From contig CAWEBB010000032.1 of the NCBI GenBank assembly GCA_963807085.1, positions 38,146-102,145 of the forward strand: DNA of 64,000 nucleotides, given 5' to 3'. A program made the position numbers and the translations under genes. The notes below the pieces were generated by a model that saw nothing but the letters and a program-made list of their open reading frames with translations, was not told where the DNA came from and searched no databases. Below, piece after piece: positions 28,320 through 64,000 of the stretch (position 1 is the first letter of the stretch; the number at the start of each line of letters is the position of its first letter). Origin of the DNA: an uncultured Alphaproteobacteria bacterium (lineage in GTDB: Bacteria; Pseudomonadota; Alphaproteobacteria; Bin95).

Positions 28320-28420
28320 GGCGTTCGCCCCGCGCCGTCATTGCGAAGCCGTTTGCCGGGGCGGAGTAGAAGCCATTCACACGCAGCGGCATGATTGTCA
28401 GGTAAGAGGCGTTTTTGGCG

Positions 28421-28870
28421 TCAGGTCTCGATCTGCTTTTCTTCCTCATTTTTCCGTTTGTCGAATTCGGCAGCAAGGTCGGTTGCTTCTTTTTCTGACA
28501 ACAACTTGCGTGCGCGCGCGAAGACTTCTTTTTCTTCCTCATCAACATGATGTTCGGTTTGGTGGCGAAGCTCTTTGAATTTTGTAAGCCAAGCGCCGGA
28601 CGCCATATCCATTTCTTCCAGTTCGGCAATCAGATCATTGATCTCGTCATGCTCGACGATACTGTGGCGTGCTTTTTCCTGGCTGTCCGGTTCGGCCAGA
28701 AGTACCGCGTAAAATACCTGCTCCTCCGCATTGGCATGGGCCTCGAGTTCTTTCTTGAGAAGGCCGAAGAGGCGCCGGCGCTCTTTCGTGTCGCCGCTCG
28801 TCTCACCGATGCCACCGAGCAGGCCGCGCTGCTTGTCGTGGTCTGTTGTCAGTCGTTCATAGATGTCCAT
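28421..28870 (-). CDS. Hemerythrin-like (HHE cation-binding) domain protein
   Basis: ...HANAEEQVFYAVL...HSIVEHDEINDLIAELEEMD...HQTEHHVDEEEKEVFARA... The gene is markedly lower in GC than its surroundings. The track ORF is over-extended 5'. Confidence 0.65.
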   Translation of the reverse strand: MDIYERLTTDHDKQRGLLGGIGETSGDTKERRRLFGLLKKELEAHANAEEQVFYAVLLAEPDSQEKARHSIVEHDEINDLIAELEEMDMASGAWLTKFKELRHQTEHHVDEEEKEVFARARKLLSEKEATDLAAEFDKRKNEEEKQIET

Positions 28871-28998
28871 CGAAATACCTTTCACAGAATGCAGAAACGC
28901 GCGTCTTTCGGCAGAACCGGCGCCCGCTCCAACCAATAAAGTCCGAGGGGTGGAAAGGTTCCGCGCACGGCCCAAGCCGCTGAAGTCCAGGCGGTGCC

Positions 28999-44238: not shown

Positions 44239-44320
44239 TTTTGGTCGTTTTCCTTGCCCTCCATGCCGCGCTGCACCAAATTACACCTTTTCCTTACCCA
44301 ACCGAAACGGAGCCACTTCA

Positions 44321-46279
44321 ATGCCGGATTCCGCATTGCATCAGGTCACGATTACGCTGCCGGATGGCGCGACTCGCGCCTATGCGGCCGGCACCACCGT
44401 GGCTGATGTTGCCGCGTCTATCTCCAAGAGCCTGGCCAAAAAGGCGATCGCCGCCAAAATCAATGGCAAGGTCCGCGATCTCGCGACGCCGCTCGACCAT
44501 GACGCGAACGTCGCGATTTTGACCCGCGACGACGAGGACGCGCTCGAACTGATCCGGCACGACGCCGCGCATGTGATGGCGGAGGCGGTGCAGGAACTTT
44601 ACCCCGGCACCCAAGTTACGATCGGCCCGGCGATCGAGCACGGCTTCTATTACGACTTCGCCCGCGACGAGCCGTTCACGCCCGAAGACCTCGAAAAGAT
44701 CGAGGCCAAGATGCACGATATCATCAAGCGGGATGAGGCCATAGAGCGCGAGGTTTGGGACCGGGACGAGGCGATCAAGCATTTCGAGGCCATGGGCGAA
44801 GCTTTAAGGCCGAATTGATCCGCGATCTGCCAGAGAGCGAGGACATTTCGATCTATCGCCAGGGCGAGTGGCACGACCTGTGCCGCGGCCCGCACATGCC
44901 GTCCACCGGCCATGTCGGCACGGCGTTCAAGCTGCAGCGGTTGGCGGGCGCCTACTGGCGCGGCGATTCGCAACCGCGCGCAGCTACAGCGCATCTACGG
45001 CACGGCCTGGCGCAACGAAAAGGAACTGAAGGCTTATCTGACCCAGTTGGAGGAGGCCGCGAGGCGCGACCATCGCCGCCTGGGCCGCGAAATGGACCTG
45101 TTCCACCTGCAGGAGGAAGCGGTCGGCAGCGTGTTCTGGCACCCGAAGGGCTGGACGGTGTACCGGCTGTGCGAAGAATACATGCGCCGGCGCCTGGAAG
45201 ACGGCGGCTATGTCGAGGTAAAGACGCCGCAGCTGATCGACCGCGTGCTCTGGGAGCGCTCCGGCCACTGGGAAAAATTCCGCGAGCACATGTTCATCGC
45301 CGAGACCGAGGACGAGCGTGTGCTTGCCGTGAAGCCAATGAATTGCCCCGGCCATGTCCAGATCTTCAATCAGGGCGTGAAGAGTTACCGCGACCTGCCC
45401 CTGCGCATGGCGGAGTTCGGCTCGTGCCACCGCAACGAGTCCTCTGGCTCCATGCACGGCATCATGCGCGTGCGGGCGTTTACCCAGGACGACGCGCATA
45501 TCTTCGCGACGGAAGACCAGATTACGGACGAAACCCGCATCTTTTGCGAGTTGCTGCTGTCGGTCTACAAGGATTTCGGCTTTGAGGACGTGGTGGTCAA
45601 ATTCTCGGACCGGCCGGAAATCCGCGTCGGCGAGGATGCCGTCTGGGACAAGGCCGAAGGCGCGCTGCGCGACGCGATCGAGGCGGTTGGCCTGTCGTAT
45701 ACGATGAACCCGGGCGAAGGCGCCTTCTATGGCCCCAAGCTGGAATTCGTGCTGAAGGATGCCATCGGCCGCGACTGGCAGTGCGGCACGTTCCAGGTGG
45801 ACTTCGTGCTGCCGGAGCGGCTTGATGCCAGCTATGTGGGCGAGGACGGCGAGAAGCATCGCCCGGTCATGCTGCACCGCGCGATCCTCGGCTCGTTCGA
45901 GCGGTTCCTCGGCATCCTGATCGAGAACTATGCCGGCCGCTTCCCGCTCTGGCTGGCGCCGGTGCAGACGGTGGTGGCGACCATCACCAGCGACGCCGAC
46001 GCCTATGCCGGGCAGGTGGCCGCCGCTTGCACCAGGGCCGGCCTGCGCGTTGAGACCGATCTGCGCAACGAAAAGATCAACTACAAAGTGCGCGAGCATT
46101 CGGTGACGAAGGTGCCGACCATGCTGGTCGTCGGCCGGCGGGAGGCCGAGCAGGGAACCGTGGCGCTGCGGCGACTGGGTGGCAAGGACCAGGAAGTGTT
46201 GCCGCTAGACCAGGCGATCGCGTCCCTGGTGGACGAGGGACGCATGCCCGATGGCGGGAAGCCAGACGGAGAAGGTTAG
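44321..46279 (+). pseudogene. thrS: Threonyl-tRNA synthetase, with two frameshifts (about nt 44805 in a T run and about nt 44960)
   Basis: TGS/editing N-terminus, then LIRDLPE...[18 protein letters not shown] in a second frame, then the class-II core and anticodon-binding domain in a third. Confidence 0.9.
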
Positions 46280-46283
46280 GCTG

Positions 46284-46730
46284 ATGGTTGTTAGACGAAC
46301 TGGTACGCCCTGGAAGCCTCCCCGCGAGTATTCGAAGGAGCTGTCCGGGCTGACGGTCAATCTACTGGTGCGGGATATCCCGCGGGCAACCGCGTTCGCG
46401 CGCGAGGTGTTGCGGGCGCGCGTGATCTATGAAGACCCGGACTTTGCGGCCTTGGAGGCGCCGAGGGAAACACGCGGGGCCAAATGGTGCCTGCATGCCG
46501 ACCACACCTATGGCGACCACCCGCTATTCGGGTCGTTGGAGGCCACAGGGGTCCGAGGTATCGGCGCCGAGTTCCGCCTGATGGGACTCAATCCGGATGC
46601 GGCGGAAGCGCGGGCCCGCGCGGGCGGGTATGATGTTCTAGCCGGCTGTCTGGACAAGCCGCACGGGATGCGAGAAGCCTATCTGCTCGACCCGGACGGC
46701 TATTGCTGGGTTCCAGCCGTTGTGTCCTGA
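46284..46730 (+). CDS. VOC (glyoxalase/bleomycin-resistance) family protein
   Basis: Weak family-level resemblance only. Confidence 0.5.
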   Translation: MVVRRTGTPWKPPREYSKELSGLTVNLLVRDIPRATAFAREVLRARVIYEDPDFAALEAPRETRGAKWCLHADHTYGDHPLFGSLEATGVRGIGAEFRLMGLNPDAAEARARAGGYDVLAGCLDKPHGMREAYLLDPDGYCWVPAVVS

Positions 46731-53110: not shown

Positions 53111-53740
53111 TCACTGGCTCGCCCATAAAATCCGGGCGATCCATTCCACCTCGGCGGTCGGCAGGACCGGGTTGTCGTATTCGGGATTGAGGCTGCGCAG
53201 TTCGATTCGCTGCGCCGTTCGCCGTACCAGTTCCTTGGCCATTACCTCGCCTTCGCTGGTTTTCACCACGACCCGATCTCCGACGCGGATATTGGCGACG
53301 GGTGAAACGATGATGCGGTCGCCGCCCCGATAGAGGGGTTCCATCGAGTCGCCGCTGACCATCAGGGCATAGGCATTGGGGTCGCCGATATCCGGAAAAA
53401 CAATCTCGTCCCAGCCCGATCCGGTCGGATAGCCGGCATCGTCGAAATAGCCGCTGTCGCCAGCCTGCGCGAAGCCGATCACGGGAATCCGCTGGGTAGC
53501 CGTGGCTGTCGAGTTTGGAAGTTCGTTCAGCAGGTCCGACAGGCTGGCGCCTGTAGCCGTCAGAATTTTCGCGATGCTCTCAGTGCTTGGCCATCGCAGC
53601 TTGCCGTCACGGGTTGCCCGCTTGCTTTTGTTGAAGGTCGTCGCATCCAGGCCGGCGCGCTTCGCCAGTCCGGAGGGAGAAAGATCGTGCTTTGCCGCCA
53701 GGCGGTCGATCGCTTCCCAGATGTCAGCGTGCTTTAACAT
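53111..53740 (-). CDS. XRE-family HTH + peptidase S24 (CI/LexA-fold) repressor, prophage-repressor type
   Basis: N-terminal HTH (LSPSGLAKRAGLDATTFNKSKR), C-terminal S24 (ALMVSGDSMEP...K). It is not the alphaproteobacterial LexA architecture. Confidence 0.8.
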   Translation of the reverse strand: MLKHADIWEAIDRLAAKHDLSPSGLAKRAGLDATTFNKSKRATRDGKLRWPSTESIAKILTATGASLSDLLNELPNSTATATQRIPVIGFAQAGDSGYFDDAGYPTGSGWDEIVFPDIGDPNAYALMVSGDSMEPLYRGGDRIIVSPVANIRVGDRVVVKTSEGEVMAKELVRRTAQRIELRSLNPEYDNPVLPTAEVEWIARILWASQ

Positions 53741-53749
53741 GATGCCTCG

Positions 53750-53774
53750 CCCTGTTGTTGGGCCTGTTGTTGGG
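53750..53774. repeat. Tandem 12/13-mer direct repeat (cctgttgttggg ×2) in the repressor's upstream region; candidate operator
   Basis: cctgttgttgggcctgttgttggg, 10-35 bp upstream of the repressor start codon. Confidence 0.5.
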
Positions 53775-53795
53775 AACACAGTCTCATACTATCGC

Positions 53796-53824
53796 TTGAC
53801 ATTCACTAGGAAAAAGTTCATATA
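53796..53824 (+). promoter_or_regulatory. Near-consensus sigma70 promoter (TTGACA-17-CATATA) facing the + strand small genes; contains two TAGGAA hexamers
   Basis: cgcTTGACAttcacTAGGAAaaagttCATATAGGAAtc. AT-rich island in a 65% GC background. Confidence 0.55.
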
Positions 53825-53858
53825 GGAATCAAAGCCGATAAATTGTTTGGAGAGAGCG

Positions 53859-54251
53859 ATGTACGATGATCCGATTGCGGGGTCGGAATCCGATGAAGGA
53901 GAGAGCCCGTTCTCCAGCGCCGACGAAGCATGGATCTGGGCCGTGCAGGGGATGCAAAGCCGCCTGTCCGGGGCAAACATCAAGGCCGGCATGGGCAAAT
54001 TTACAAGGCCTTGCGAGGCATCCGATGTTTTAGGCTGCGCCGACGCGCTGCATCGGCAGGGGGCGCTAAGCAACGTGGAGTTGCGGGTGCTGTTGCTCTA
54101 CGGCGGCTACGCGGCGGCCCCGATGATGCTGGGCTGTTCCCATGCCCCGGCGGTGCCTTTTTGGCAGCGCGGCATGGATGCGCTGACGCCATTAATGGAA
54201 CAAAAAGGGATCATTCTTCCGCGCGCAAGGGCGCGTTTCCGTGCGGACTAA
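53859..54251 (+). CDS. Hypothetical protein (130 aa)
   Basis: GGAGAG RBS and good GC3 bias; no recognisable family. Confidence 0.45.
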   Translation: MYDDPIAGSESDEGESPFSSADEAWIWAVQGMQSRLSGANIKAGMGKFTRPCEASDVLGCADALHRQGALSNVELRVLLLYGGYAAAPMMLGCSHAPAVPFWQRGMDALTPLMEQKGIILPRARARFRAD

Positions 54252-54618
54252 CGCGATCGTCGTCTTCAGCGGCCAGACCGATTTCTGGTGGCAGCGCCTG
54301 CTAAGGCCCGGCTACCGCCATTGCGGCGTCATGATCGAGTGTGGCGACCACTGGGTGGTTCTGGAGCCGCTTGCGGCGCGTTTGGAGGTGCGGATTTTCA
54401 CCGTATCCAGCCCCGACGCCCTCAAGCGGGCCCTGCGCCGCCGGCAGTTGCTGGCGGTCGAGACCGAGGTGCAAGTCGATGCGGCCCCCGCATTGTTTCC
54501 GGGCCTGTTCACCTGTGTGGAGGCCGTGAAGCGCGCCCTCGGCATTCGCGCCGTCTGGGTGCAGACCCCGTGGCAGCTCCATAAAAATCTCAAATTAGGA
54601 AAAAAAACCTTGACATGA
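54241..54618 (+). CDS. Hypothetical protein (125 aa)
   Basis: GTG start overlapping the previous stop. Its stop codon lies inside the -35 of the downstream promoter. Confidence 0.4.
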   Translation: MRTNAIVVFSGQTDFWWQRLLRPGYRHCGVMIECGDHWVVLEPLAARLEVRIFTVSSPDALKRALRRRQLLAVETEVQVDAAPALFPGLFTCVEAVKRALGIRAVWVQTPWQLHKNLKLGKKTLT

Positions 54619-54638
54619 ACACGTAATAGGAATATATA
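54610..54638 (+). promoter_or_regulatory. Near-consensus sigma70 promoter (TTGACA-17-TATATA) with an upstream A-tract, preceding the virion gene block
   Basis: attAGGAAaaaaaaccTTGACAtgaacacgtaaTAGGAAtaTATATAc. Confidence 0.55.
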
Positions 54639-54743
54639 CATCCTCAAGACGGCCCCACTGCGCCCAGCGCCCGGGGCCGTTCCTGTTTCCGACAACCGCA
54701 TGGAACGGCGCCAGACGCATGGCCGGTTCCAAAAGGAGGATGG

Positions 54744-54980
54744 ATGGGCGCCATTATCAGTCCACTGACGCGGGAGGCTCCGGCTCCCAAGCCGACGCCG
54801 ACCGTCGTCGAACCCGCGGTCGATCCGGCCGTGGCGGAGCGCGAAGCCGCATCGGCGGCCCGGCGCGCGTTCCTGGCCCGCCAACAGAAAGGGCGGCTCG
54901 GAACGATCGCCACCACCGCCCGGGGTGTTTTGAGCCCTGGCCAGTTGTCGGTCGTCCGCCGCTCATTGCTCGGAGAATAA
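54744..54980 (+). CDS. Small Pro/Ala-rich hypothetical protein (78 aa) immediately upstream of the portal gene
   Basis: AAGGAGG RBS. The stop is 1 nt before the portal ATG. Confidence 0.5.
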   Translation: MGAIISPLTREAPAPKPTPTVVEPAVDPAVAEREAASAARRAFLARQQKGRLGTIATTARGVLSPGQLSVVRRSLLGE

Positions 54981-54981
54981 G

Positions 54982-56523
54982 ATGAAGGCAGCCGAAATCC
55001 TCCGGCAGGAGTTCACGCAGGCGTTCCGTGGTCGCATGGCCTGGGAAGAGCATTGGCGCGATTGCTATGCCTACGCCATGCCGCAGCGCGAGGCCGGTGC
55101 TCCGGCGGGCGCCCGCCGCTCCGACCGTCTGTTCGACGGAACCGCGGCCGACGCGGTCGAGCAACTGGCGGCCAGCCTGCTCTCCGAACTGACGCCGCCC
55201 TGGGTGCGTTGGGTGGAACTGAAGCCGGGGCCCGAAGCCACGGTTGACGAAGCGGCGGCGATATCGCCGGCGCTCGACCGGGTGAGCGCCACGTTGCAGT
55301 CTCATTTCGACCGCTCCAACTTCGCGGTCGAAATCCACCAATGCTATCTGGACCTGGTGACGGCCGGTACCGCCTGTCTGCTGTTCGAAGAGGCGCCGGT
55401 CGGCGAGGCCAGCGCCTTTCGCTTTACCGCGGTGCCGATCCACGACGTCCTCATGCAGGAGGGCGCAACCGGCCGGTTGGACCGTGTGTGGCGCCGCGTG
55501 CAGCTGACCCCAGAGCAGTTCGTGGAACGCTACGGGCACCCGCCCACGGCCGAGCCCGGTGCGGAGGCGCCGAAAAAGATCGGCGTGCTGGAAGCCGTGC
55601 GCCCGACACCGAATGGTCACAAATACGTGGCAGTGCGCGAACAGGGGGAAGGCGACGACGGAACCCTGGCGGAAGGCGAGTTCGCCTCCAACCCCTTTAT
55701 CGGCTTCCGCTGGCTGAAAGCGCCGGGCGAGTCCTATGGACGTTCGCCGGTGATGACCGCCTTGCCGGATATCAAGACCGCTAACAAGGTCGTGGAGCTG
55801 ATTCTTAAGAACGCCTCCATCGCCGTCACCGGCATCTGGCAAGCGGACGACGACGGCGTCCTGAACCCCGGCACGGTCAAGCTGGTACCCGGCACCATCA
55901 TTCCGAAGGCCGTCGGCTCGGCGGGCCTGGCGCCGCTGCAGGCGCCCGGCCGGTTCGATGTTTCCGAATTGGTCCTCAGCGATCTGCGCGCCCGCATTCG
56001 TCACGCCCTGCTGGTGGACCGGTTGGGTACGGTGCAAAGTCCGCGCATGACCGCGACCGAGGTGTTGGAGCGCTCGGCGGAGATGGCCCGCATCCTGGGG
56101 GCGACCTATGGCCGGCTTCAGGCGGAGCTGTTGTCGCCCTTGCTTTCGCGGGGGCTCAGCATTCTGCGTCGGCGCGGCGAGGTTCCGGATGTTCAGGTCG
56201 ATGGGCGCACGGTTGACCTGCACTACCGCTCGCCGCTGGCGGAAGCGCAGAACCGGGCGGAGGCGCAATCGGCGCTGGGCTGGGTCAAGACCGTCGCCGA
56301 GATGGGGCCGGAGGGTCTCTCGGTCGTCGATCTGCCCGCCTTCGCGCGCTGGCTGGCGGGCAAGATGTCGGTGCCGGGAGAACTGCTGCGCCCGCCGCCC
56401 TTGGCGCCGATCACCGACGTTTCCGGCGATGACGCGCTCGCCCAGTTGTCGGACGCGCTGCTGCCCGCTCTTGGAGAAGGCGCCGGAGTGAATACCGGGG
56501 AGGGCGACGGCGATGCTGAATGA
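54982..56523 (+). CDS. T7-type portal (head-to-tail connector) protein
   Basis: Collinear with T7 gp8, including LKAPGESYGRSPV versus T7 RLDGESYGRSYIE, plus SNFAVEIHQCYLDLVTAGTACLLFEE. Confidence 0.8.
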   Translation: MKAAEILRQEFTQAFRGRMAWEEHWRDCYAYAMPQREAGAPAGARRSDRLFDGTAADAVEQLAASLLSELTPPWVRWVELKPGPEATVDEAAAISPALDRVSATLQSHFDRSNFAVEIHQCYLDLVTAGTACLLFEEAPVGEASAFRFTAVPIHDVLMQEGATGRLDRVWRRVQLTPEQFVERYGHPPTAEPGAEAPKKIGVLEAVRPTPNGHKYVAVREQGEGDDGTLAEGEFASNPFIGFRWLKAPGESYGRSPVMTALPDIKTANKVVELILKNASIAVTGIWQADDDGVLNPGTVKLVPGTIIPKAVGSAGLAPLQAPGRFDVSELVLSDLRARIRHALLVDRLGTVQSPRMTATEVLERSAEMARILGATYGRLQAELLSPLLSRGLSILRRRGEVPDVQVDGRTVDLHYRSPLAEAQNRAEAQSALGWVKTVAEMGPEGLSVVDLPAFARWLAGKMSVPGELLRPPPLAPITDVSGDDALAQLSDALLPALGEGAGVNTGEGDGDAE

Positions 56524-56776
56524 TCTTCAGGACGGATGGGCGTGGTTTGACGACCCGTCGGAACGGCAGGCGGACAGTGAGCTGCGGCAGTATTTCGTCC
56601 GCGCCTTTCATTCGGACGCGGGGCGGCAGGTGTTGGCGCATTTGCGCGCCGCAACGGTGGAACGGCGCACGCCGCCCGACGCGCCGGACAGCGTCCTCCG
56701 CCATCTGGAGGGCCAACGCTACCTGTTTCAACTGATCGAACGGCTGGCGAATGCCGAGCTGCAGGAGTCTGCGTAG
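56513..56776 (+). CDS. Hypothetical protein (87 aa), overlapping the portal 3' end
   Basis: Coding-like GC3; unknown function. Confidence 0.35.
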   Translation: MLNDLQDGWAWFDDPSERQADSELRQYFVRAFHSDAGRQVLAHLRAATVERRTPPDAPDSVLRHLEGQRYLFQLIERLANAELQESA

Positions 56777-56777
56777 A

Positions 56778-57578
56778 ATGAACGAACCTCTCAACACACC
56801 CACCGAGAGCGGCGATAGCGCGATTTCGGCCGGCACCGCGCAGGGCCTGCCGGAGCGGTCAATGGAGCGGCCCGGCGAGGGAGCCGTTACGCGGCCCGCA
56901 TCGGTTCCGGACAAATTCTGGGACACGGCGACGAACTCCGTCCGTGTGGACGACCTCGCCAAATCCTATTGCGAGCTGGAGCGCCATTTGGGCGGCTCCG
57001 TAAAGATTCCGGACGAAAGCGCGGACGATGCGGAGATCGCCCGTTTCCGCCAGGCCCTGGGCGTGCCGGAAAACCCCGATGGCTATGAACTTCAACTGGA
57101 CGAAGAAAGCCTGGAAGCCGACCCGGAGGTCAACCGCCGGCTGCACGAAGCGGGCTTCAGCCAAAGCCAGGCCCAGCTCGTCTATGACTTGGCCAGGGAA
57201 TATATCGGCCCCATGGTTCAGCAGACCGCCGCCGATTTCGAGGCAGAGCGCCAGACCGAGCGCCTGCAACAGCATTTCGGCGGTGCGGAGGCCTGGACGG
57301 GCATCTCGCGCCAGCTTCAGGAATGGGGCAAGGCCAACATGGCGCCGGAGGCTCTTAGCGCACTGTCGACTACCTATGAGGGATGTTTGGCGCTGCACAA
57401 AATGATGCAAAGCCAGGAGCCCGGCCTCGTCCGCAGCAACGGCCCCGCCGAGCGGGATGGCACCGACGAGTTGAAGGCGATGATGCGCGACCCGCGTTAT
57501 TGGCGCGACCGCGACCCTGCCTTCATCCGACAAGTCACCGATGGTTTCAGCCGCCTGTACGCCGACGGCGACGGCTAG
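56778..57578 (+). CDS. Putative scaffolding protein (acidic; 266 aa)
   Basis: Position between portal and capsid; acidic, coiled-coil-like composition. Confidence 0.45.
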   Translation: MNEPLNTPTESGDSAISAGTAQGLPERSMERPGEGAVTRPASVPDKFWDTATNSVRVDDLAKSYCELERHLGGSVKIPDESADDAEIARFRQALGVPENPDGYELQLDEESLEADPEVNRRLHEAGFSQSQAQLVYDLAREYIGPMVQQTAADFEAERQTERLQQHFGGAEAWTGISRQLQEWGKANMAPEALSALSTTYEGCLALHKMMQSQEPGLVRSNGPAERDGTDELKAMMRDPRYWRDRDPAFIRQVTDGFSRLYADGDG

Positions 57579-57843
57579 GCGGAGCCATCTGGAGCAGATA
57601 CCGATCCAGTCGGATTGGATGCTCAAGGAATCGCTAGGGCGCGCACGATCGCGCGCCCTAGCGGTGGCGGGCCCGCCGGAGAACTGGAGATTTCCCCGCC
57701 CGAGAGGGCGTGTTTGGGAAAAGTCGCCAGCCCGGCGGGCCTTCAGGCAGAACGACGGCCGTTCCGCAGGTGCAAACCTACGGGGCGGGAACCGGATGGA
57801 AGCTGCTTCCCCACCAACAGAAAAATCAAAGGGTTAATTGCAG

Positions 57844-58662
57844 ATGTCGACCACCATCGACCAATCGTTCATCCGCCAGTTCGAGGCCGAAGTTCACGAG
57901 GCCTATCAGCGGATGGGATCCAAGCTCCGTCAGACTGTCCGCTCCAAGGGCAATGTACAAGGTTCCTCGACCACCTTCCAAAGGGTCGGCCAGGGCGCGG
58001 CTTCCACCAAGTCGCGGCATGGCCTGGTCCCCGTCATGACTATCGATCACAGCGCCATCGAGTGCGTGCTGACCGACTATTATGCCGGTGACTGGGTCGA
58101 CAAGCTCGACGAGATGAAAATCAACATCGACGAGCGGCACGTGATCGCCAACGCCGGCGCCTATGCGCTGGGCCGCAAGACGGACGAGTTGATCATCGCC
58201 GGCCTGAACACGTCCACTAACTACGCCGGTCTCGCGACCGACGGCCTGACGAAGGCCAAGGTTCTGACCGCCTTTGAGAAGATGGGGGCGGCGGATATTC
58301 CCGACGATGGCCAGCGCTTCGCGGTCATCGGCTGGAAACAGTGGGCGGAGTTGCTTAGCATTCCGGAGTTCGCCAACGCGGAATATGTCGGGGCGGACGC
58401 GCTGCCCTGGCGCGACACACAGGCGAAGCGCTGGCTCGGAACCACCTGGATCCCGCATTCCGGCCTGTCTCTTTCCGGCTCGGCGCGCCTGTGTCACTGG
58501 TACCATCGGACGGCGATCGGTCATGCGGCCGCCGCAGAGGTCCAGACCGACATCACCTGGCACGGCGACCGGGCGGCCTACTTTGTCGCCAACATGATGA
58601 GCCAGGGTGCGGTGAGGATCGACGGCGCCGGTGTCGTGACCATGCGTTGCTTCGAGAGCTAA
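57844..58662 (+). CDS. T7-type major capsid protein
   Basis: FIRQFEAEVHEAYQRMGSKLRQTVRSKGNVQGSSTTFQRVGQ parallels T7 gp10 LFLKVFGGEVLTAFARTSVTTSRHMVRSISSGKSAQFPVLGR. Confidence 0.7.
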   Translation: MSTTIDQSFIRQFEAEVHEAYQRMGSKLRQTVRSKGNVQGSSTTFQRVGQGAASTKSRHGLVPVMTIDHSAIECVLTDYYAGDWVDKLDEMKINIDERHVIANAGAYALGRKTDELIIAGLNTSTNYAGLATDGLTKAKVLTAFEKMGAADIPDDGQRFAVIGWKQWAELLSIPEFANAEYVGADALPWRDTQAKRWLGTTWIPHSGLSLSGSARLCHWYHRTAIGHAAAAEVQTDITWHGDRAAYFVANMMSQGAVRIDGAGVVTMRCFES

Positions 58663-58689
58663 ACCGCCAAGCTGAAGAAGGGACGCCAC

Positions 58690-58929
58690 ATGGCATTCGA
58701 CCCCCAAAACATGGGCGTGCTGGGCTACTGCAATGGCTTTACTCTCTGGTATTATCGGTCGGCGACGGACAATTACCCGACCGTTACCGCAGACGGCTAT
58801 TTCACCCCGTTCTATGAGTCTCTCAGTCTGGAAGATGTCATCTTCTTTACCGAGTCGAATGGACGGACCGGCCGGCGGCGTATCAACCAACTGTCCAAGT
58901 CGTTGGTGACGATAACGCACCTGCTTTAG
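58690..58929 (+). CDS. Hypothetical protein (79 aa)
   Basis: ORF with an ATG start between the capsid and tubular A genes. Confidence 0.3.
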   Translation: MAFDPQNMGVLGYCNGFTLWYYRSATDNYPTVTADGYFTPFYESLSLEDVIFFTESNGRTGRRRINQLSKSLVTITHLL

Positions 58930-59019
58930 CTCCCTAGCAACTCAGCAACCACTCATATCAGCCGCGGCCTCGCTCTCGATCGGGAGCGGGGCCGTTTCCT
59001 TATCAAGGGAGTTTTCTCG

Positions 59020-59592
59020 ATGGCTCTTAGCGCTATCGCGCTCTGCTCGCGCGCGCTGTTGAAGCTCGGCGCCCGGCCGATCGCCGGGTTCGACGAAGGC
59101 ACTGCCGAAGCGGAGGTCGCGGTCAATCTGTTTCCCTCCATCCGCGATGCGTTGCTTTCGGCGCATGGCTGGTCGTTCGCCACGGCCCAGAGCCGGCTGC
59201 CCCAGCTGGAAGAAGCGCCGGTGGCGGATTTCGACCGGGCTTTTCAACTGCCCGTGGATTTCCTGCGGGCCTTGTCGGCCGGTGCGGGTGCGCGCGGCCG
59301 CGGCCTGGTCTACCGGATTGTGGATGATCGGCTGCATACCTCCTCAAGCGAAGTTTATCTGACCTACATTTTCCGGCCAGCCGAGGTCGATTTCCCGCCA
59401 TTTTTCGACCAGCTTCTGATCGCCCGGCTTGCCGCGGAGTTTTGCATTCCGGTCACGGAAAGCACCAGCCGCGCCGAGATGCTGTACCGGATCGCCGAAA
59501 CCGAGTTCCGCCGCGCGCGCCTGGTCGATGCACAGCAGGACACGCCGCTCGCGATCGAAGACTTCCCGCTGGTTGCGGTGCGCGGCCGATGA
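59020..59592 (+). CDS. T7-type tail tubular protein A (gp11-like)
   Basis: Size and position match; ALLKLGARPIAGFDEG...LLSAHGWSFA parallels T7 gp11 ILASIGEPPVSTLEGD...IQSRGWTFN. GGGAG RBS. Confidence 0.6.
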   Translation: MALSAIALCSRALLKLGARPIAGFDEGTAEAEVAVNLFPSIRDALLSAHGWSFATAQSRLPQLEEAPVADFDRAFQLPVDFLRALSAGAGARGRGLVYRIVDDRLHTSSSEVYLTYIFRPAEVDFPPFFDQLLIARLAAEFCIPVTESTSRAEMLYRIAETEFRRARLVDAQQDTPLAIEDFPLVAVRGR

Positions 59593-61493
59593 CGGTCGTC
59601 AACCTGTTGAAGACCAACTTCACGGCGGGCGAGATCTCGCCGCTGCTGTATGGCCGCGGGGATTTGCGCGCGTACGACAACGGCGCGGCAAAGCTTCAAA
59701 ACGTCTTCATTCACCCGACCGGCGGCGTCTATCGCCGGCCTGGCCTCCGCTATATCGGGCCTGCGCGCGGGCGCGGGCGCCTTATGACGTTCGAGTTCAA
59801 TACCGAACAGGTGTACCTGCTCGCCTTCAGCGACCGGATGCTGGACATCTATGAAGGGGACAACCTGGTCGTCTCGGTCGCGACGCCCTGGACCGAAGCG
59901 CAACTGGCGCAGATCGCCTGGACCCAAAGCGCCGACACATTGCTCGTGACCCATCCGGACGTGCCGCCCCGGCGGATCACCCGGACGGGCCCCGCCACCT
60001 GGACCGTCAGCGAGTGGGTTTTCGCCGAAAAGGACGGCGTGTGGTACGCGCCATTTTTCCGGTTCGGCCACACGGGCGTGACGCTGACGCCGAGCGCCGT
60101 GACCGGCGCCATCACCATCACCGCGTCTGCGGCGGTGTTCGATGCAAACCATGTCGGCACCCGCCTGCGGTTGGCGACCAAGCAGGTGGCGATCACCGGC
60201 TTCACCTCGCCGACGCAAGTGAGCGCCGACGTTCTGCAAGACCTGGCTGGCCTGGAGCCGACCGAAGATTGGGACGAACCGGCCTTTTCCCCGCGGCGCG
60301 GCTGGCCGGTCACGGTGGCCTTTCATCAGGATCGGCTGGTCATTGGCGGCTCCCGCGATCTGCCGAACCGGCTTTGGTTCTCCAAGTCGGGCGACCTGTT
60401 CAACTTCGATCAGGGCGAGGGCCTGGACGACGAAGCGATCGAGTTTCCGATCCTCTCCGATCAGGTCAACGCCATCCGTGCCCTGTTCTCAGGCCGGCAC
60501 CTGCAGGTCTTTACCTCGGGCGCCGAATGGATGGTGACGGGCGACCCGTTGGCGCCGACCACCGTGCAGCTGCGCCGGCAGACCCGCATCGGCTCGCTGA
60601 TCAGCCGAACAATTCCCCCGAAAGACGTGGATGGCGCGACCATGTTCGTCGGGCGCACCGGTCACGAGCTGCGGGAGTTCCTGTTCTCGGATATCGAGCA
60701 GGCCTATCAGGCGGGCGACCTGGCGCTGCTGGTCGCGCACTTCTTCCGTGATCCGCTCATGCAGGATTTCGACCCGGCCCACCGGCTGCTGCATCTGGTG
60801 CTGGCGGATGGGACGCTGGCGACGCTGACAATCTACCGCAACGAGCAGGTTACCGCCTGGACGCGGCAGATCACGGAAGGTTCCTTCCGCGACTTGGCGG
60901 TCGTCGGCGATACCACGTACGTGCTGGTGCAGCGTGCGCACGGCCTGTTCGTCGAAGTCTTCGACGAAACATTTGGCGTCGATAGCGGCGTCCATACCCA
61001 GGTGTTTACCCTGGAGGACTCCGCGACCGGTCTGGACCACCTGGAAGGGCAGACCGTTGCCATTGTCGCCGATGGCACCCTGCGCCAGTCCCAGACGGTA
61101 CAGGGTGGGCGAGTTGCGGTCGGTGCTGCCGCCTACCAGGCAGCGATCGGGCTGCCCTTTCAGCACATTATCGAGGCGCTGCCGGTCGCCGGATCGATGC
61201 CGGGCGGCTCGGCCCAGGGCCGTTCTTACCGGGTGGTCGAGGCAACCTTCCGCCTGCACGAGACGGGGGCGCTCGTCTGCGACCTGGGTTCCGGCCTGAC
61301 GCCGGTGCCGTTTCGGCAGGTGGGCGGGACCACCAGCTTCGGCAGTCCCGCCCCGAACTTTTCCGGGGACAAGCATATCCGCGCGCTCGGCTGGCGGCGC
61401 TCCGGCATCGATGCGCCATGGCGCATCGATCAGGACGCGCCGCTGCCGTGCACCGTTCTTTCCGTAACAACTGAAATCAAGGTGACCAACTGA
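59589..61493 (+). CDS. T7-type tail tubular protein B (gp12-like)
   Basis: N-terminal NFTAGEISPLLYGRGDLRAY...VYRRPGLRYI parallels T7 gp12 NLKGGISQQPDILRYPDQ...KRPPLVFL. ATGA overlap with the gp11-like gene. Confidence 0.65.
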   Translation: MTVVNLLKTNFTAGEISPLLYGRGDLRAYDNGAAKLQNVFIHPTGGVYRRPGLRYIGPARGRGRLMTFEFNTEQVYLLAFSDRMLDIYEGDNLVVSVATPWTEAQLAQIAWTQSADTLLVTHPDVPPRRITRTGPATWTVSEWVFAEKDGVWYAPFFRFGHTGVTLTPSAVTGAITITASAAVFDANHVGTRLRLATKQVAITGFTSPTQVSADVLQDLAGLEPTEDWDEPAFSPRRGWPVTVAFHQDRLVIGGSRDLPNRLWFSKSGDLFNFDQGEGLDDEAIEFPILSDQVNAIRALFSGRHLQVFTSGAEWMVTGDPLAPTTVQLRRQTRIGSLISRTIPPKDVDGATMFVGRTGHELREFLFSDIEQAYQAGDLALLVAHFFRDPLMQDFDPAHRLLHLVLADGTLATLTIYRNEQVTAWTRQITEGSFRDLAVVGDTTYVLVQRAHGLFVEVFDETFGVDSGVHTQVFTLEDSATGLDHLEGQTVAIVADGTLRQSQTVQGGRVAVGAAAYQAAIGLPFQHIIEALPVAGSMPGGSAQGRSYRVVEATFRLHETGALVCDLGSGLTPVPFRQVGGTTSFGSPAPNFSGDKHIRALGWRRSGIDAPWRIDQDAPLPCTVLSVTTEIKVTN

Positions 61494-61948
61494 TGGGCGC
61501 AGTAGCTCCTGTAATCGCGGCAGGCTCGCTGATGGGATTGAGCCTGCTCGACAACGCCAACTCCGCGCGCACGGCCCAGCAACGGGCGGCGCAATCCTCC
61601 GAGGCGGCCCGGGCCAATGCCGACCTGCAACTGGCGAAGCTCCAGTCCGACCAGGAAGAGAGCCAGGCCAAGCGGCAGTCGGCGTTGCGGCGCGCGCAGG
61701 CACGCACGCGGGCCCTGCTGGCCAGCCGCGGCGTCGGCGGCTCCGGCCGTGCCGTGCTGCAGGGCCTGGCGGTCGAAGCCGCCCGGGACCAAGCGTTTGC
61801 GGACAGCGATGCCGACTTGCAGCGCCAGAGTATCGAGCTGGGCGTGGACACCACGCGCCGGCGCAACCTGCTGGCCGCCGACGATGCGCGACGCCGCGCC
61901 CAGTTGGACCTGCTGCGCACCGGCACCCGCACGATCAACAGCCTATAG
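61493..61948 (+). CDS. Hypothetical coiled-coil virion protein (151 aa; possibly gp13/gp14-like)
   Basis: ATG overlaps the gp12-like stop (cTGATGg). Gln/Arg/Ala-rich. Confidence 0.4.
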   Translation: MGAVAPVIAAGSLMGLSLLDNANSARTAQQRAAQSSEAARANADLQLAKLQSDQEESQAKRQSALRRAQARTRALLASRGVGGSGRAVLQGLAVEAARDQAFADSDADLQRQSIELGVDTTRRRNLLAADDARRRAQLDLLRTGTRTINSL

Positions 61949-61967
61949 CGCCGACGGAGAACGACCG

Positions 61968-64000
61968 ATGGTTCAGTCCAAACATATAAGAATACAAGCA
62001 AAAAGCCCGCGCGTGCAGTACATTGCCGACGGCACGCAAACCTTCTTCACGTTCACTTTTCCCGTCTTTCATGCCGGCAATCTGCACGTCTATGTCGATG
62101 AGGTTCTGCAGGTCGGCACCTATACGGCGAACGGTGTCGGCGCGAGCCATGGCGGCGCGATCGTATTCGAGAACCCGCCGCCCGCGGGCGCCCGCATCAC
62201 GCTGCGGCGGCTGCTGCCGGTCGAGCGGGTCACTGACTTTCAGGAAGGGGGCGATTTTCGCGCCGCGACCCTGAATGACGAACTCGACTACCAGACCGCG
62301 GCCATGCAGCAGATCCAGTCGGACATGGAGCGGGGCCTTCGCCTGGCGCCGACCGATACGGAAGCGACGACCACCCTGCCGGGCAAGGGGGACCGCGCCG
62401 GCAAGTTCCTGGCGTTCGACACCGCTGGGCAGCCGGTGGCGCTGCCGCCGACCACGGATATGCCCGGCGACGCCAGTACCGCCTATGTGATCGGCTCCGG
62501 CCAGGTGACACCGCGCACGCTCGCAGACCGCTTTTCGGCGATCCCGACCGTGCTGGACCAGGGAGCGAAGGGCGATGGCGGCACCGACGATGGCCCGGTC
62601 CTTGCAACGCTTGCTTCGCCTCACTTGCTGCCGGCCGGCAGTTATGCGGTCAGTGCCGACGATCTGCCGGCGGTCCGCCCCTATAACGTTTACGGTGGCG
62701 GCGAACTGGTGGACCCGAACGCGACCGAAACCTCGCTCCGTGCCCGTCAGCGCCTGCTGAACGATCGCGGCATGGGGTATTCGCTGGGCATGATGGCCAG
62801 CCTGTTGCCGGATCTCTCCGGGCCGCGGATGGATATGGCGGCGCTTGCCGATGCGATTGCAATGGGGGCCGCCAAAGTGGTCCTGGTCGGCGACAGCATT
62901 ACCGAAGGGGCGGACGTCGAGGAGGAAAACAGTTGGGGCGCGCTGCTCCAGCAGAGCCTCGAGCGCACCTTTCCGGAGGTCACCTGGACCTTCGCCAACC
63001 TATCGCTCGCCTCGCGCCATGCCGAGCATCTGGCGGACCCGGCCTATTTGGGCTTGCCCAGCGAGCCGGCGGACAAGGAGCAGGGCTTCTTTCGCCCACC
63101 CGCCACCGCCTTTCCCCGTGAGAACTGGCAGGCCGGCTCCGTCACCGGCAAGTCCTGGCGCAACCATGTGCGGGACGAGGCGCCGGATCTGATCGTCTGG
63201 GCGCACGGGATGAACAATTTTCACCTCTCCGGCCAGCAATATTTCGCCGCGCTGATCAGCTTTCTGGACTATGCGAAGACCTGGGCAAAGGTGCCGGCGA
63301 TCGCGCTGGCCACGACATTTCTGCCGACACGCCTGAACCCGATCTATCGGGCGCGTCAGGGGGCGCATGACGGGCACTACCGCATCCTGCGGGAGATTGC
63401 CGTGATCCGCCGCACGGGTCTGATCGATGCGAACCGGGTCTATCACTTCCTGCGCGATGGTGTGGACGAAGGGCGCCGCCACTGGTTCCGCGAAGACAAT
63501 TTCCGCGGGTGGAACACAGCCTGGTGGGATTTCCTCGAAGGCGGCACCGGTCAGGTGGCCACCGCCTCCGGCCGGCTGCGCTTTTCCGGCATCGCCCGGC
63601 CCCGGCGCAAGCTGATGGCCGCCGACTTCCAGGCGGACATTACCTGGAAGCCGGCGAATGCTGCAGATGTGCTGGGGTTCAATTACCGTGTCGACCCGGA
63701 CAATGGCGCCGATCGGTACGAGTTCCAGTGGTCCGGCCCGAACCTGAAGATCTACTGGAAGAACACGGTCAAGCTTGCCGCTATTGATGCGGCGGCGGCG
63801 GCCGGCACCGACAATTTCGTGCGCATCCGCTGCGACGGCGCCCGGCATCGCGTCTGGATCAATGGCGTCCTGAAGCTGGATGGCAATGACTTTGCCAACC
63901 TGGCCGAAGGTTCGTGCGCATATCGCGCCTATCTGGGCAGTGCGGCCGCCGCGGAAATCGGCTGCCGGCTGAAGATCGGTTACCCGGCCCGGCATGCCCG
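61968..64000 (+). CDS. Tail fibre protein: T7 gp17-type N-terminal domain fused to an SGNH/GDSL hydrolase-like domain; 3' end lies beyond the window
   Basis: GGAG RBS and ATG 61968. Frame 0 stays open to nt 64000 by manual translation. QYIADGTQTFFTFTFPVF..NLHVYVDEV....ARITLRRLLPVERVTDFQEGGDFRAATLNDELDYQTAAMQQIQ matches the T7 fibre N-domain pattern. Later VVLVGDSITEG and WAHGMNNF resemble SGNH blocks I and III. Confidence 0.75.
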   Translation, partial: MVQSKHIRIQAKSPRVQYIADGTQTFFTFTFPVFHAGNLHVYVDEVLQVGTYTANGVGASHGGAIVFENPPPAGARITLRRLLPVERVTDFQEGGDFRAATLNDELDYQTAAMQQIQSDMERGLRLAPTDTEATTTLPGKGDRAGKFLAFDTAGQPVALPPTTDMPGDASTAYVIGSGQVTPRTLADRFSAIPTVLDQGAKGDGGTDDGPVLATLASPHLLPAGSYAVSADDLPAVRPYNVYGGGELVDPNATETSLRARQRLLNDRGMGYSLGMMASLLPDLSGPRMDMAALADAIAMGAAKVVLVGDSITEGADVEEENSWGALLQQSLERTFPEVTWTFANLSLASRHAEHLADPAYLGLPSEPADKEQGFFRPPATAFPRENWQAGSVTGKSWRNHVRDEAPDLIVWAHGMNNFHLSGQQYFAALISFLDYAKTWAKVPAIALATTFLPTRLNPIYRARQGAHDGHYRILREIAVIRRTGLIDANRVYHFLRDGVDEGRRHWFREDNFRGWNTAWWDFLEGGTGQVATASGRLRFSGIARPRRKLMAADFQADITWKPANAADVLGFNYRVDPDNGADRYEFQWSGPNLKIYWKNTVKLAAIDAAAAAGTDNFVRIRCDGARHRVWINGVLKLDGNDFANLAEGSCAYRAYLGSAAAAEIGCRLKIGYPARHA

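Follow-up and report, generated by a model that had tools for sequence, protein, structure and literature searches.

How a tightly packed, co-directional block of T7-like virion genes came to lie behind a CI-type repressor among ordinary host genes is the question raised by a 64,000-nucleotide stretch of DNA, here called the window, from an uncultured Alphaproteobacteria bacterium (GenBank assembly GCA_963807085.1, contig CAWEBB010000032.1, positions 38,146 to 102,145). Such a block could be the remains of a prophage, a minimal phage that still moves, or a particle-producing element kept by its host. The original prediction, made from the letters of the window, had leaned towards a domesticated or maintained, repressor-controlled particle element. 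The conservation of the locus, its co-divergence with the flanking genes and the purifying selection on it, all described below, bear this out: the cluster is very probably a vertically inherited, selectively maintained and non-replicative particle gene cluster. With somewhat less confidence, its genes suggest that it is a domesticated, SOS-triggered podovirus-type particle system of the kind of gene transfer agents (GTAs) and PBSX, under SOS and antitermination control and producing DNA-filled particles.

The phage-derived cluster covers about 15.1 kb, from 53111 to about 68194, and the window holds its left three quarters. Coordinates follow the numbering of the window; those beyond 64000 are window-equivalent and were read from contig L002. 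L001 and L002 are short-read contigs of one metagenome run that were found by exact-sequence look-up. L001 aligned to the window at 99.85% identity (7 mismatches) and L002 at 99.89% over 3621 nt (4 mismatches), both without gaps, and L002 runs 6 kb beyond the window edge. Both junctions of the element are tight. On the left, 11 nt separate the stop codon of the repressor gene from a host 2-oxoglutarate (2OG) oxygenase gene, and on the right 41 nt lie between a cell-wall hydrolase gene and host pyrD, which is followed on L002 by a gene for a HAD hydrolase. The upstream neighbours had been read as host genes, and scans with hidden Markov models (HMMs) identified them as such (Bac_luciferase, the LLM oxidoreductase; DUF4170; Oxygenase-NA). 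The host-like composition and the ATGA overlaps noticed earlier were also seen: GC content is about 65% in the region of the element as in the rest of the window, third-position GC (GC3) of the element genes is 0.71–0.83, the same as in the adjacent host genes, and ATGA and other gene overlaps occur within the cluster.

The absence of integrase, replication and RNA polymerase (RNAP) genes, claimed for the part inside the window, holds in HMM scans across the whole 15.1-kb element. A tRNA search of the element found none, and flanking direct repeats of 12 nt or more, and with them att repeats, were not found. An integrated functional prophage would be recognized by an integrase or excisionase, att sites and a contiguous lysogeny and replication module, none of which is seen here. 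In an Rfam scan of 52.5–64 kb the sole match was a sub-threshold Mg riboswitch on the wrong strand.

Relatives of the locus were collected in a portal scan that used one genome per GTDB species and in which 600 stretches were examined. At least 364 portal relatives were found in these species genomes. The best 80 of them share 53–83% identity and are almost all from Rhodospirillales sensu lato, the genera and groups being Azospirillum, Niveispirillum, Magnetospirillum, Telmatospirillum, Magnetovibrio, Thalassospiraceae, Terasakiella, Rhodovibrio, Caenispirillum, Defluviicoccus, Tagaea, Ferrovibrio and Micavibrio. This reduced gene set, bounded on one side by the repressor gene as in the window, recurs beside housekeeping genes in more than 100 loci of many genera. 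As revealed by tblastn, the conserved order is repressor (minus strand), orf134, orf125, (orf78), portal, Bbp19, scaffold, capsid, orf79, tubular A, tubular B, (gp14-like) and fibre, followed further on by terL and the hydrolase. The comparison of synteny in relatives that had been proposed thus showed the block conserved between housekeeping genes across genera of the Rhodospirillales. Recurrent left-flank genes are those for a class-IV IlvE-like aminotransferase (17 loci), class-I LysRS (13), a helicase-like protein (11) and SdhA/B (9), and FabI and FolE are also seen. No integrase or replication family is among the 25 most frequent neighbour families. The capsid gave no relevant match in PLSDB (72,556 plasmids), which indicates that the element is not carried on the Azospirillum chromids.

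The portal was compared with the flanking proteins by pairwise identities among loci that have the same flank gene. Portal identity followed that of the IlvE-like (Pearson r 0.95, Spearman 0.69), SdhA (0.92 and 0.68) and helicase-like (0.92 and 0.60) proteins, and more weakly that of LysS (0.53 and 0.35). On average the portal is as conserved as the flanking housekeeping proteins, and in 31 of 35 labelled cases it shares genus or family with its nearest neighbour. The closest relative of the window, locus L003, has the same LLM/DUF4170/2OG flank. Between the two, synonymous divergence (dS) is saturated in flank and element genes alike (0.9–2.2; one gene 4.0), and non-synonymous divergence (dN) is also alike, 0.08–0.17 in the host genes as compared with 0.045 in capsid, 0.06 in tubular A, 0.11 in portal and 0.14 in fibre. 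The ratio of the two (omega) is 0.04–0.21, reaching 0.56 where dS is saturated. The capsid (93% identity) has an omega of 0.05 and the fibre (80% over 858 codons) one of 0.08. In close pairs of Azospirillum species (dS 0.03–0.36), omega is 0.00–0.36 for every gene, fibre included, and for the repressor it is 0.00–0.08 in the close species pairs and 0.00–0.19 across all tested pairs. These values point to long-term vertical inheritance and purifying selection, as expected of a GTA or viriform.

The genes downstream of the control genes, all on the plus strand, were called from mechanical open reading frames (ORFs) and HMM scans (Pfam, PHROG, NCBIfam), and are as follows.

54744–54980: orf78, the first late gene, 78 aa (phrog_831 2.4e-4), with a conserved MGG(I/L)F N-terminus
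54982–56523: portal, the head-tail connector of T7 gp8 type (PF12236 4.7e-134; phrog_332 1.5e-101)
56513–56776: Bbp19-like small protein (PF25181 2.3e-13)
56778–57578: scaffolding protein of T7 gp9 type (PF05396 1.9e-18; phrog_3742)
57579–57843: 265-nt spacer 5′ of the capsid gene, with GC-rich palindromes and a GCSACAACCG-type motif
57844–58662: major capsid protein, HK97 fold, Phage_capsid_2 (PF19821 1.4e-77; phrog_3437 3.8e-71)
58690–58929: orf79, a 79-aa ORF after capsid (phrog_18004 2.7e-7)
58964–58995: strong terminator-like hairpin after the capsid/orf79 unit, 14 pairs and a T-rich tail
59020–59592: tail tubular A, adaptor of gp11 type (phrog_394 5e-42; Pfam Tube weak, 0.008)
59589–61493: tail tubular B, nozzle of gp12 type (phrog_376 2.5e-147)
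61493–61948: 151-aa coiled-coil protein with a weak T7_gp14 match (PF24072 2.5e-5, below the Pfam cut-off)
61968–64547: tail fibre/tailspike, cut at the window edge at 64000; full length 859 aa on L002
L002, after the fibre gene: XhlA/holin-like ORF, 92 aa
L002, next: ORF with transmembrane (TM) segments and a lipobox, 219 aa
L002, next: secreted ORF, 101 aa
L002: candidate small terminase, 119 aa, its gene in ATGA overlap with the large terminase gene
L002: large terminase of T7 type, 500 aa (phrog_38 1.4e-74; NCBIfam termin_lrg_T7, NF033889, 1.7e-113)
L002, after the large terminase and before pyrD: SleB-like cell-wall hydrolase, 162 aa

HMMs support the portal, scaffold, capsid, tubular A and B and fibre N-terminus of the T7-like virion block as originally predicted. 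The predicted major capsid gene is present, its family being PF19821 Phage_capsid_2 and not T7 gp10, and the Bbp19-like gene and the 79-aa ORF had been overlooked. The block was taken to lack a terminase because the window ends inside the fibre gene; the T7-type large terminase lies past that edge, its termin_lrg_T7 match being well over the cut-off and its sequence containing Walker A and B motifs. Together with the lysis cassette it makes the description 'structural-only' untenable. Extension of the sequence downstream on L002 thus recovered terminase and lysis genes; it brought no integrase or att site and no gp15 or gp16, and gp14 is represented by the weak match alone. The genes of the element encode a complete head, a short tail, a T7-type packaging motor and lysis genes.

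The 78-aa gene is preceded by a strong ribosome-binding site (RBS), AAAGGAGG, and its product is a putative virion or assembly protein with no role assigned. With tblastn it was matched in only 23 of the 80 genome loci, a low count explained by its shortness and fast divergence, and the MGG(I/L)F start is visible in many more leader sequences than that. The Bbp19-like gene was found in 69 of the 80 loci, and a collinear homologue of the 79-aa ORF in 48. The 151-aa gp14-like protein is the sole candidate for an internal protein in the element. Genes of gp15 or gp16 size were not found, the space from tubular B to fibre or terminase being too short in all mapped loci. The N-terminus of the fibre is a T7-fibre-like adaptor (phrog_1640 1e-29; PF03906 5.5e-4, weak), and the remainder consists of an SGNH/GDSL-like esterase (Lipase_GDSL_2 1.9e-6) and lectin-like parts.

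The cluster is interrupted by host genes in many genomes. The gap between scaffold and capsid is most often about 250–310 nt, and host-gene insertions of 0.7–8 kb were found there in 57 of 116 loci, or 69 loci after capsid-centred loci were added (among them L016, L021, L022, L028, L029, L064, L094–L099, L104 and L126). An inserted gene for a PAS/GGDEF/EAL sensor (799–833 aa) is retained in about 20 Azospirillum loci, and Magnetospirillum-type loci have an MCP-signalling-like gene at this position. The 10-nt motif GCSACAACCG precedes the start codon of capsid by about 62 nt in 86 of 118 loci (interquartile range 56–67 nt), with GC-rich palindromes 5′ and a G-poor leader 3′ of it; its form in the window is CGGGAACCG at 57786–57794. 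Where host genes are inserted upstream, the motif always remains with the capsid gene, and it is a candidate signal for expression of the capsid-to-terminase half in interrupted clusters. Rfam has no family for the spacer or motif region, and no structured RNA is claimed there since the hairpin upstream of the motif has a mean z of only −0.6. A second P2-like promoter (see below) 5′ of capsid was rejected, having been found in 1 of 69 insertion-bearing loci. To judge from the loci compared, the conservation, co-divergence and insertions fit neither an infectious phage nor a decaying remnant; this is the pattern known from GTAs.

Some loci depart from the common layout. In L075 and L082, capsid, orf79, tubular A and tubular B are placed upstream of portal and scaffold, and in L078 terminase and hydrolase lie between orf125 and portal. 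A gene for a GcrA-like cell-cycle regulator (about 121 aa) is located just after the cell-wall hydrolase gene in L032, L034 and L035.

From which phages could such a module derive? Cultured phages reach at most 31–37% identity in the portal (HTVC010P-type pelagiphages and a Methylophilales phage) among 50,697 phage records, and these records contain no free genome of the element's clade. A single portal match in these records is higher (55%), and it belongs to an unannotated fragment of 5 kb that came from human faeces. No phage terminase is more than 32% identical to the large terminase. In the 34-kb pelagiphage EXVC031P 'Hodr' there are collinear homologues of portal, Bbp19, scaffold, capsid (50%), orf79, tubular A and B, the fibre N-terminus and the hydrolase. 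IMG/VR contigs of 33–37 kb (L215, L218, L222, L224) have a capsid of 62–64% identity, but their portal and tubular proteins reach only about 30%. The structural module, as compared by its proteins, is closer to pelagiphages of the HTVC010P/'Hodr' type than to T7 proper, and its collinear homology with this podovirus lineage suggests descent of the element from an HTVC010P/'Hodr'-type podovirus of the T7 supergroup.

The differences from these viruses are equally clear. Phages of the Hodr/HTVC010P type and the 33–37 kb contigs are complete viral genomes of about 60 genes, in which the S24 repressor and orf134 are absent and terminase is upstream of portal. In the 33-kb contig L218, a Toprim primase gene is located upstream and ORFs of 238, 750 and 780 aa follow the nozzle gene at the position of gp14/15/16, whereas the element has neither a primase nor the large ORFs. 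Replication functions and large ejection proteins thus appear to have been lost in every mapped locus.

The order portal, scaffold, capsid, tubular A, tubular B, gp14-like, fibre, lysis, small ORF, large terminase mirrors T7 genes 8–19, and the likeness extends to the T7-type TerL and to a terminator that follows the capsid gene in the way that T-phi follows gene 10 of T7; the hairpin at 58964–58995 has this placement, and read-through of it would be needed. Unlike T7, the element has no single-subunit RNAP, no DNA-metabolism genes and no gp15/gp16, its capsid is of PF19821 and not of the T7 gp10 family, and its repressor control is of temperate style. Of the features that define Autographiviridae, the gp8 portal, gp9 scaffold, gp11/gp12, gp17-type fibre N-terminus and gp19-type terminase are present, RNAP and a replication module are absent from the element and its flanks, and of gp14/gp15/gp16 there is only the weak gp14-like 151-aa protein.

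The left end of the cluster holds the putative control genes and regions.

53111–53740, minus strand: helix-turn-helix (HTH)-S24 repressor (PF00717 4.6e-22; HTH_26 9.8e-5; phrog_4 7.3e-31)
53741–53858: divergent control region P1, with TTGACA at 53796–53801 and TAGGAA at 53807 and 53823
53859–54251, plus strand: orf134, 130 aa as called, divergent from the repressor gene
54241–54618, plus strand: orf125, small, cytoplasmic, no family match
54590–54743, plus strand: late promoter and leader P2, between orf125 and the first late gene; TAGGAA at 54596, −35 TTGACA at 54610–54615, TAGGAA at 54627–54632 between −35 and −10, −10 TATATAC at 54633–54639, a conserved initially-transcribed box at 54644–54665, a GC hairpin at 54651–54678 with a weak T tract, and an RBS

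The repressor consists of an XRE/Cro-C1-type HTH and an S24 (LexA/CI-like) peptidase domain predicted to be self-cleaving, so that the CI-type repressor originally named was recovered by its HTH_26 and PF00717 matches. RecA-stimulated self-cleavage is predicted for this protein because its sequence has the hallmarks, namely an Ala-Gly in the linker FAQAG, the serine of GDSM and a lysine further downstream. Its start is likely MLKH, matching the 209-aa gene call on L001. The repressor gene adjoins the portal locus in 72 of the 80 genome loci (median 65% identity), and in 65 of the 80 it is divergent from orf134. The two small ORFs that follow had been described as unknown. No family match was obtained for either in scans of Pfam, PHROG and NCBIfam or in profile searches against PDB sequences, and they can now be described further as candidates. 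The best matches of the orf134 model are the Q21 and AlpA antiterminators, a modest fold match that makes it a candidate transcription antiterminator of Q21/AlpA type. The orf125 product is a candidate permuted papain-like (NlpC/P60/YiiX-like) cysteine hydrolase with no role assigned. The two families comprise 1061 (orf134) and 1841 (orf125) clusters, nearly all members being unnamed or 'hypothetical' and without a Pfam domain. Homologues of orf125 (30–37% identity) lie just 5′ of portal in L200 (about 4627) and L226 (about 6576), viral contigs of 24–26 kb without the repressor, which suggests that orf125 is an ancestral phage gene and not a host addition.

A strict sigma-70 scan gave 0 matches because the −10 elements end in A or C, and P1 and P2 were therefore called from cross-species conservation. 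P1 is conserved in L003–L005. Its motif [TC]AGGA[AT] was found in 93 of 107 loci, with 127 occurrences as against 23 in shuffles. An exact alphaproteobacterial SOS box (GTTC-N7-GTTC/GAAC-N7-GAAC) is present at P1 in 47 of the 107 loci as against 0.74 in shuffles, usually just downstream of the TTGAC −35. The element's own S24 repressor is probably the main control, with LexA-type boxes added in those 47 loci and none in the copy of the window. Most loci have the same P2 layout, in which TTGAC(A) is followed after about 11–13 nt by TAGGR directly before a TATA-type −10, then by the initially-transcribed box (consensus about CAACGCCACAnnTGCGCC) and a GC hairpin with a T run. A strict intrinsic terminator 3′ of P2 was detected in 46–50 of 129 loci as against 1–6 in shuffles, and the median distance from the −35 to the end of the terminator stem is 89 nt. 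The leader RNA of P2 in the window folds at −48 kcal/mol (z −2.8).

This arrangement has parallels in known switches. In the AlpR/AlpA system, a self-cleaving repressor de-represses AlpA, which binds between −35 and −10, and the polymerase then bypasses a terminator (PMC9371919). As in AlpR-AlpA of P. aeruginosa and Q of phage 21, the element has an HTH-S24 repressor gene opposite a small gene for a candidate antiterminator, and its putative target promoter has a conserved element between −35 and −10, an initially-transcribed box and, in many loci, a downstream intrinsic terminator (PMC9371919), and the predicted input of DNA damage and lysis among the outputs are common to both. There is no sequence similarity, and the operon of the element contains virion, packaging and lysis genes and not alpBCDE alone. 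The divergent arrangement, the motifs and the predicted self-cleavage are those of an HTH-S24 repressor that controls a gene for an antiterminator, here a candidate one. At the putative target promoter, TAGGR between −35 and −10 and the conserved box are seen, with the terminator in 46–50 of the 129 loci and a weak T tract in the window. Caulobacter has RogA as the repressor of gafYZ, and GafZ acts as antiterminator across its GTA cluster (PMC11150451); the control proposed for the element parallels this cascade of repressor and activator/antiterminator reading through in-cluster terminators (PMC11150451). On the parallels with AlpR/AlpA and RogA/GafYZ and on the cis-elements, we infer a cascade from repressor to orf134 to antitermination.

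GTAs and viriforms are marked by a chromosomal head-tail-packaging cluster without its own replication and integration genes, by vertical inheritance and purifying selection, and by the packaging of near-random host DNA in amounts below the agent-coding length, by delivery and by host-controlled production (PMC9662315). The element is a chromosomal phage-like cluster of this kind, with replication and integration genes absent, and it was likened to GTAs from its genes. It resembles RcGTA (R. capsulatus, and CcGTA in Caulobacter; Rhodogtaviriformidae) in being a chromosomal head-tail-terminase cluster of about 15 kb without replication or integration genes, placed among host genes, vertical across an alphaproteobacterial order, under purifying selection, host-like in composition and, as predicted from the lysis genes, dependent on lysis for release. 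The two are not homologous. RcGTA, of siphovirus type with an HK97 system, has a long tail and makes a prohead protease, whereas the element has a podovirus module (PF12236 portal, tubular A/B, T7-type TerL) with a scaffold and no protease, and its predicted control is by S24 repressor and SOS boxes and not by CtrA, GafA and quorum sensing. The particle cluster of PBSX in Bacillus, which includes genes for a terminase and for XhlA-type lysis, is chromosomal and non-replicating and is under repressor control with SOS induction, as is predicted for the element; PBSX differs in its myovirus-like contractile tail, its Firmicutes host, its unrelated genes and its narrow, not order-wide, distribution. 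PBSX packages random host DNA.

These observations bear on the other explanations of the locus. A recently truncated prophage, the right half of a T7-like temperate phage that lost its early and replication genes and integrase and is now decaying, had been the alternative in the original prediction. It would account for the missing replication, integration and RNAP genes and for the phage homologues of the virion genes. However, the same reduced set and repressor boundary recur in more than 100 loci of many genera by housekeeping genes, the genes are intact with omega of 0.00–0.36 in close pairs and 0.04–0.21 between the window and L003 (up to 0.56 with saturation), these two loci have kept the same flank although dS exceeds 1, att repeats and a tRNA are absent, and the base composition is host-like. 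A recent deletion is thus effectively refuted and this explanation deserves almost no credence. A minimal phage or helper-dependent element that still moves, packaging itself with the aid of host replication or a helper phage and spreading horizontally among Rhodospirillales by homologous recombination at conserved flanks, is very improbable too. A head of T7 size (about 35–40 kb if T=7) could hold the 15-kb cluster and its flanks, flank genes vary between some lineages, the correlation with the lysS flank is weak (r 0.53, Spearman 0.35), and IMG/VR classes such regions as viral genomes. Yet genes for an integrase, an excisionase or a replication initiator are absent, the cluster has stably retained inserted host genes of up to 8 kb in either orientation (about 20 Azospirillum loci), and some clusters look split or rearranged. 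The portal tracks genus (31 of 35) and flank divergence (r 0.92–0.95), the fibre is conserved like the core genes, unlike the receptor-binding proteins of active phages, and the clade has no free genome among the 50,697 phage records.

A domesticated element could also serve as an SOS killer particle (a PBSX-like 'phibacin') or for altruistic lysis and DNA release as in Alp, with DNA packaging being incidental. The SOS/S24 control and AlpA-like antiterminator recall the Alp lysis pathway of Pseudomonas, the XhlA-like lysis gene recalls PBSX, and in view of the missing gp15/gp16-type ejection proteins DNA may not reach the cytoplasm of a recipient. Against this stands the strong purifying selection on terminase, candidate small subunit and portal, which suggests that DNA packaging itself is maintained, and the conservation of a full receptor-binding fibre with its enzymatic domain. 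Maintained packaging and fibre fit killing and transfer alike, and this explanation, which is rather unlikely, differs from the preferred one only in the final output.

The domesticated, SOS-triggered particle system that we favour would operate as follows. In undamaged cells, the HTH-S24 repressor, together with host LexA at the SOS boxes of many lineages, would keep P1 shut. DNA damage would lead to RecA-stimulated self-cleavage of the repressor and to de-repression of orf134 and orf125. The orf134 product (Q21/AlpA-like) would then load onto RNAP at P2, and the polymerase would read past the leader and internal terminators (e.g. 58964–58995) into the late operon. T7-like procapsids and short tails would assemble. 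As excision and replication of the element are not possible, terminase would fill the heads with DNA of the chromosome. The lysis cassette (XhlA-like, TM-lipoprotein and hydrolase) would release the particles. It may be speculated that, with no gp15/gp16-type proteins, any delivery stops at the periplasm and needs uptake by the recipient, as for RcGTA. A true gene-transfer function is suggested only tentatively.

Several points weigh against this proposal. The particle system was predicted from its genes, and for the downstream 4.2 kb of the element the sequence is that of L002, a strain of 99.9% identity, and of relatives. The usual substrate of T7-type terminases is a replicated concatemer that has terminal repeats. 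The loci were chosen by portal similarity and their counts do not measure prevalence within the order, and a rare integrase may occur in single loci beyond the 25 commonest neighbour families. The rank correlations with the flanks are lower because of clade structure, and the Pearson values are inflated. In the control regions, the SOS (LexA) box is absent from P1 of the window, L003 and L005, and L004 has one one-mismatch match beyond the orf134 start codon. The P2 hairpin of the window is strong and its T tract weak; the terminator of L003 is canonical. Further, orf134 is absent from Tagaea/Ferrovibrio-type loci (L031, L033, L039, L043, L051, L067, L074 and L077), in which the gap between repressor and orf125 is only about 220 nt and a late-leader terminator was found in 2 of 13; the comparison of leader terminators with orf134 (43 of 95) and without it (2 of 13) gives a trend only (p = 0.07). 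Finally, no capsid-tail half was seen within 10 kb in about 17 loci (L064, L065, L071, L015, L023, L019 and about 11 others). There, at least 8 kb of only host genes (cytochromes, aminotransferase, Cys/Met enzymes) follow scaffold. Portal and scaffold are still under purifying selection in these genomes, and the cluster may be split into two loci.

Azospirillum lipoferum and B510 form mitomycin-inducible particles with about 10 kb of DNA, which the authors attributed to RcGTA-like genes (PMC3899980, PMC2818188). The causal genes of these particles were never pinned down, and they are taken here as a lead only and not as evidence. B510PP02 was considered as a copy of the element and rejected, as it has an integrase and is 32 kb long. 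The Azospirillum particles of the 2008 study by Boyer were reportedly siphovirus-like. A full-text literature search turned up neither a podovirus-type or T7-like GTA nor the Rhodospirillales cluster, and a 2024 review of GTAs mentions no podoviral or Rhodospirillales agent.

Elsewhere in the window, thrS (threonyl-tRNA synthetase, 44300–46300) passes from frame 0 to frame 2 and back over about 200 nt. For this gene at least, the frameshifts claimed outside the block are thus seen; in thrS, which is essential, they probably stem from an error of assembly or sequencing. At 28291–28939 there are two ORFs of low GC3 (0.66–0.68) with lysine-rich or hydrophobic translations and a local GC dip to about 0.61, which may be non-coding or foreign DNA.

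The analysis adds two uncharacterized protein families, the antiterminator candidate (orf134) and the papain-like hydrolase (orf125). It also bears on viral databases. IMG/VR contains at least 294 further relatives (contigs L083–L162 and L164–L214), many of them provirus calls of 15–25 kb from isolate genomes, which typically begin exactly at the repressor or else at capsid; copies with both ends span 15.4–19.1 kb (L169, L171–L173). These at least 294 'viral genomes' appear to be a non-viral host locus, the element being systematically scored as a virus.

Domesticated phage particle systems and GTAs are known already, and what is new here is the independent viral ancestry and the AlpR/AlpA-like switch. 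Established GTA lineages are few, namely RcGTA-like, BaGTA, VSH-1, Dd1 and VTA, and to our knowledge none of those whose gene set is known goes back to a T7-like podovirus. As a possibility that we hold with more doubt than confidence, the element may be an ancient, independently domesticated podoviral (T7-supergroup) GTA of the Rhodospirillales (Azospirillum, Magnetospirillum, Defluviicoccus, Thalassospira relatives and others), with SOS control through S24 and a new family of Q21/AlpA-like antiterminators, packaging of chromosomal DNA by a T7-type terminase and, after loss of the gp15/gp16 ejectosome, dependence on uptake by the recipient. If so, a GTA family whose gene set is known would for the first time have a podoviral ancestry, and the element would be a further independent case of phage domestication, directly testable in the tractable hosts Azospirillum brasilense and Magnetospirillum. 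In plant-associated, magnetotactic and wastewater bacteria, it would also tie the response to DNA damage to the release or exchange of DNA.

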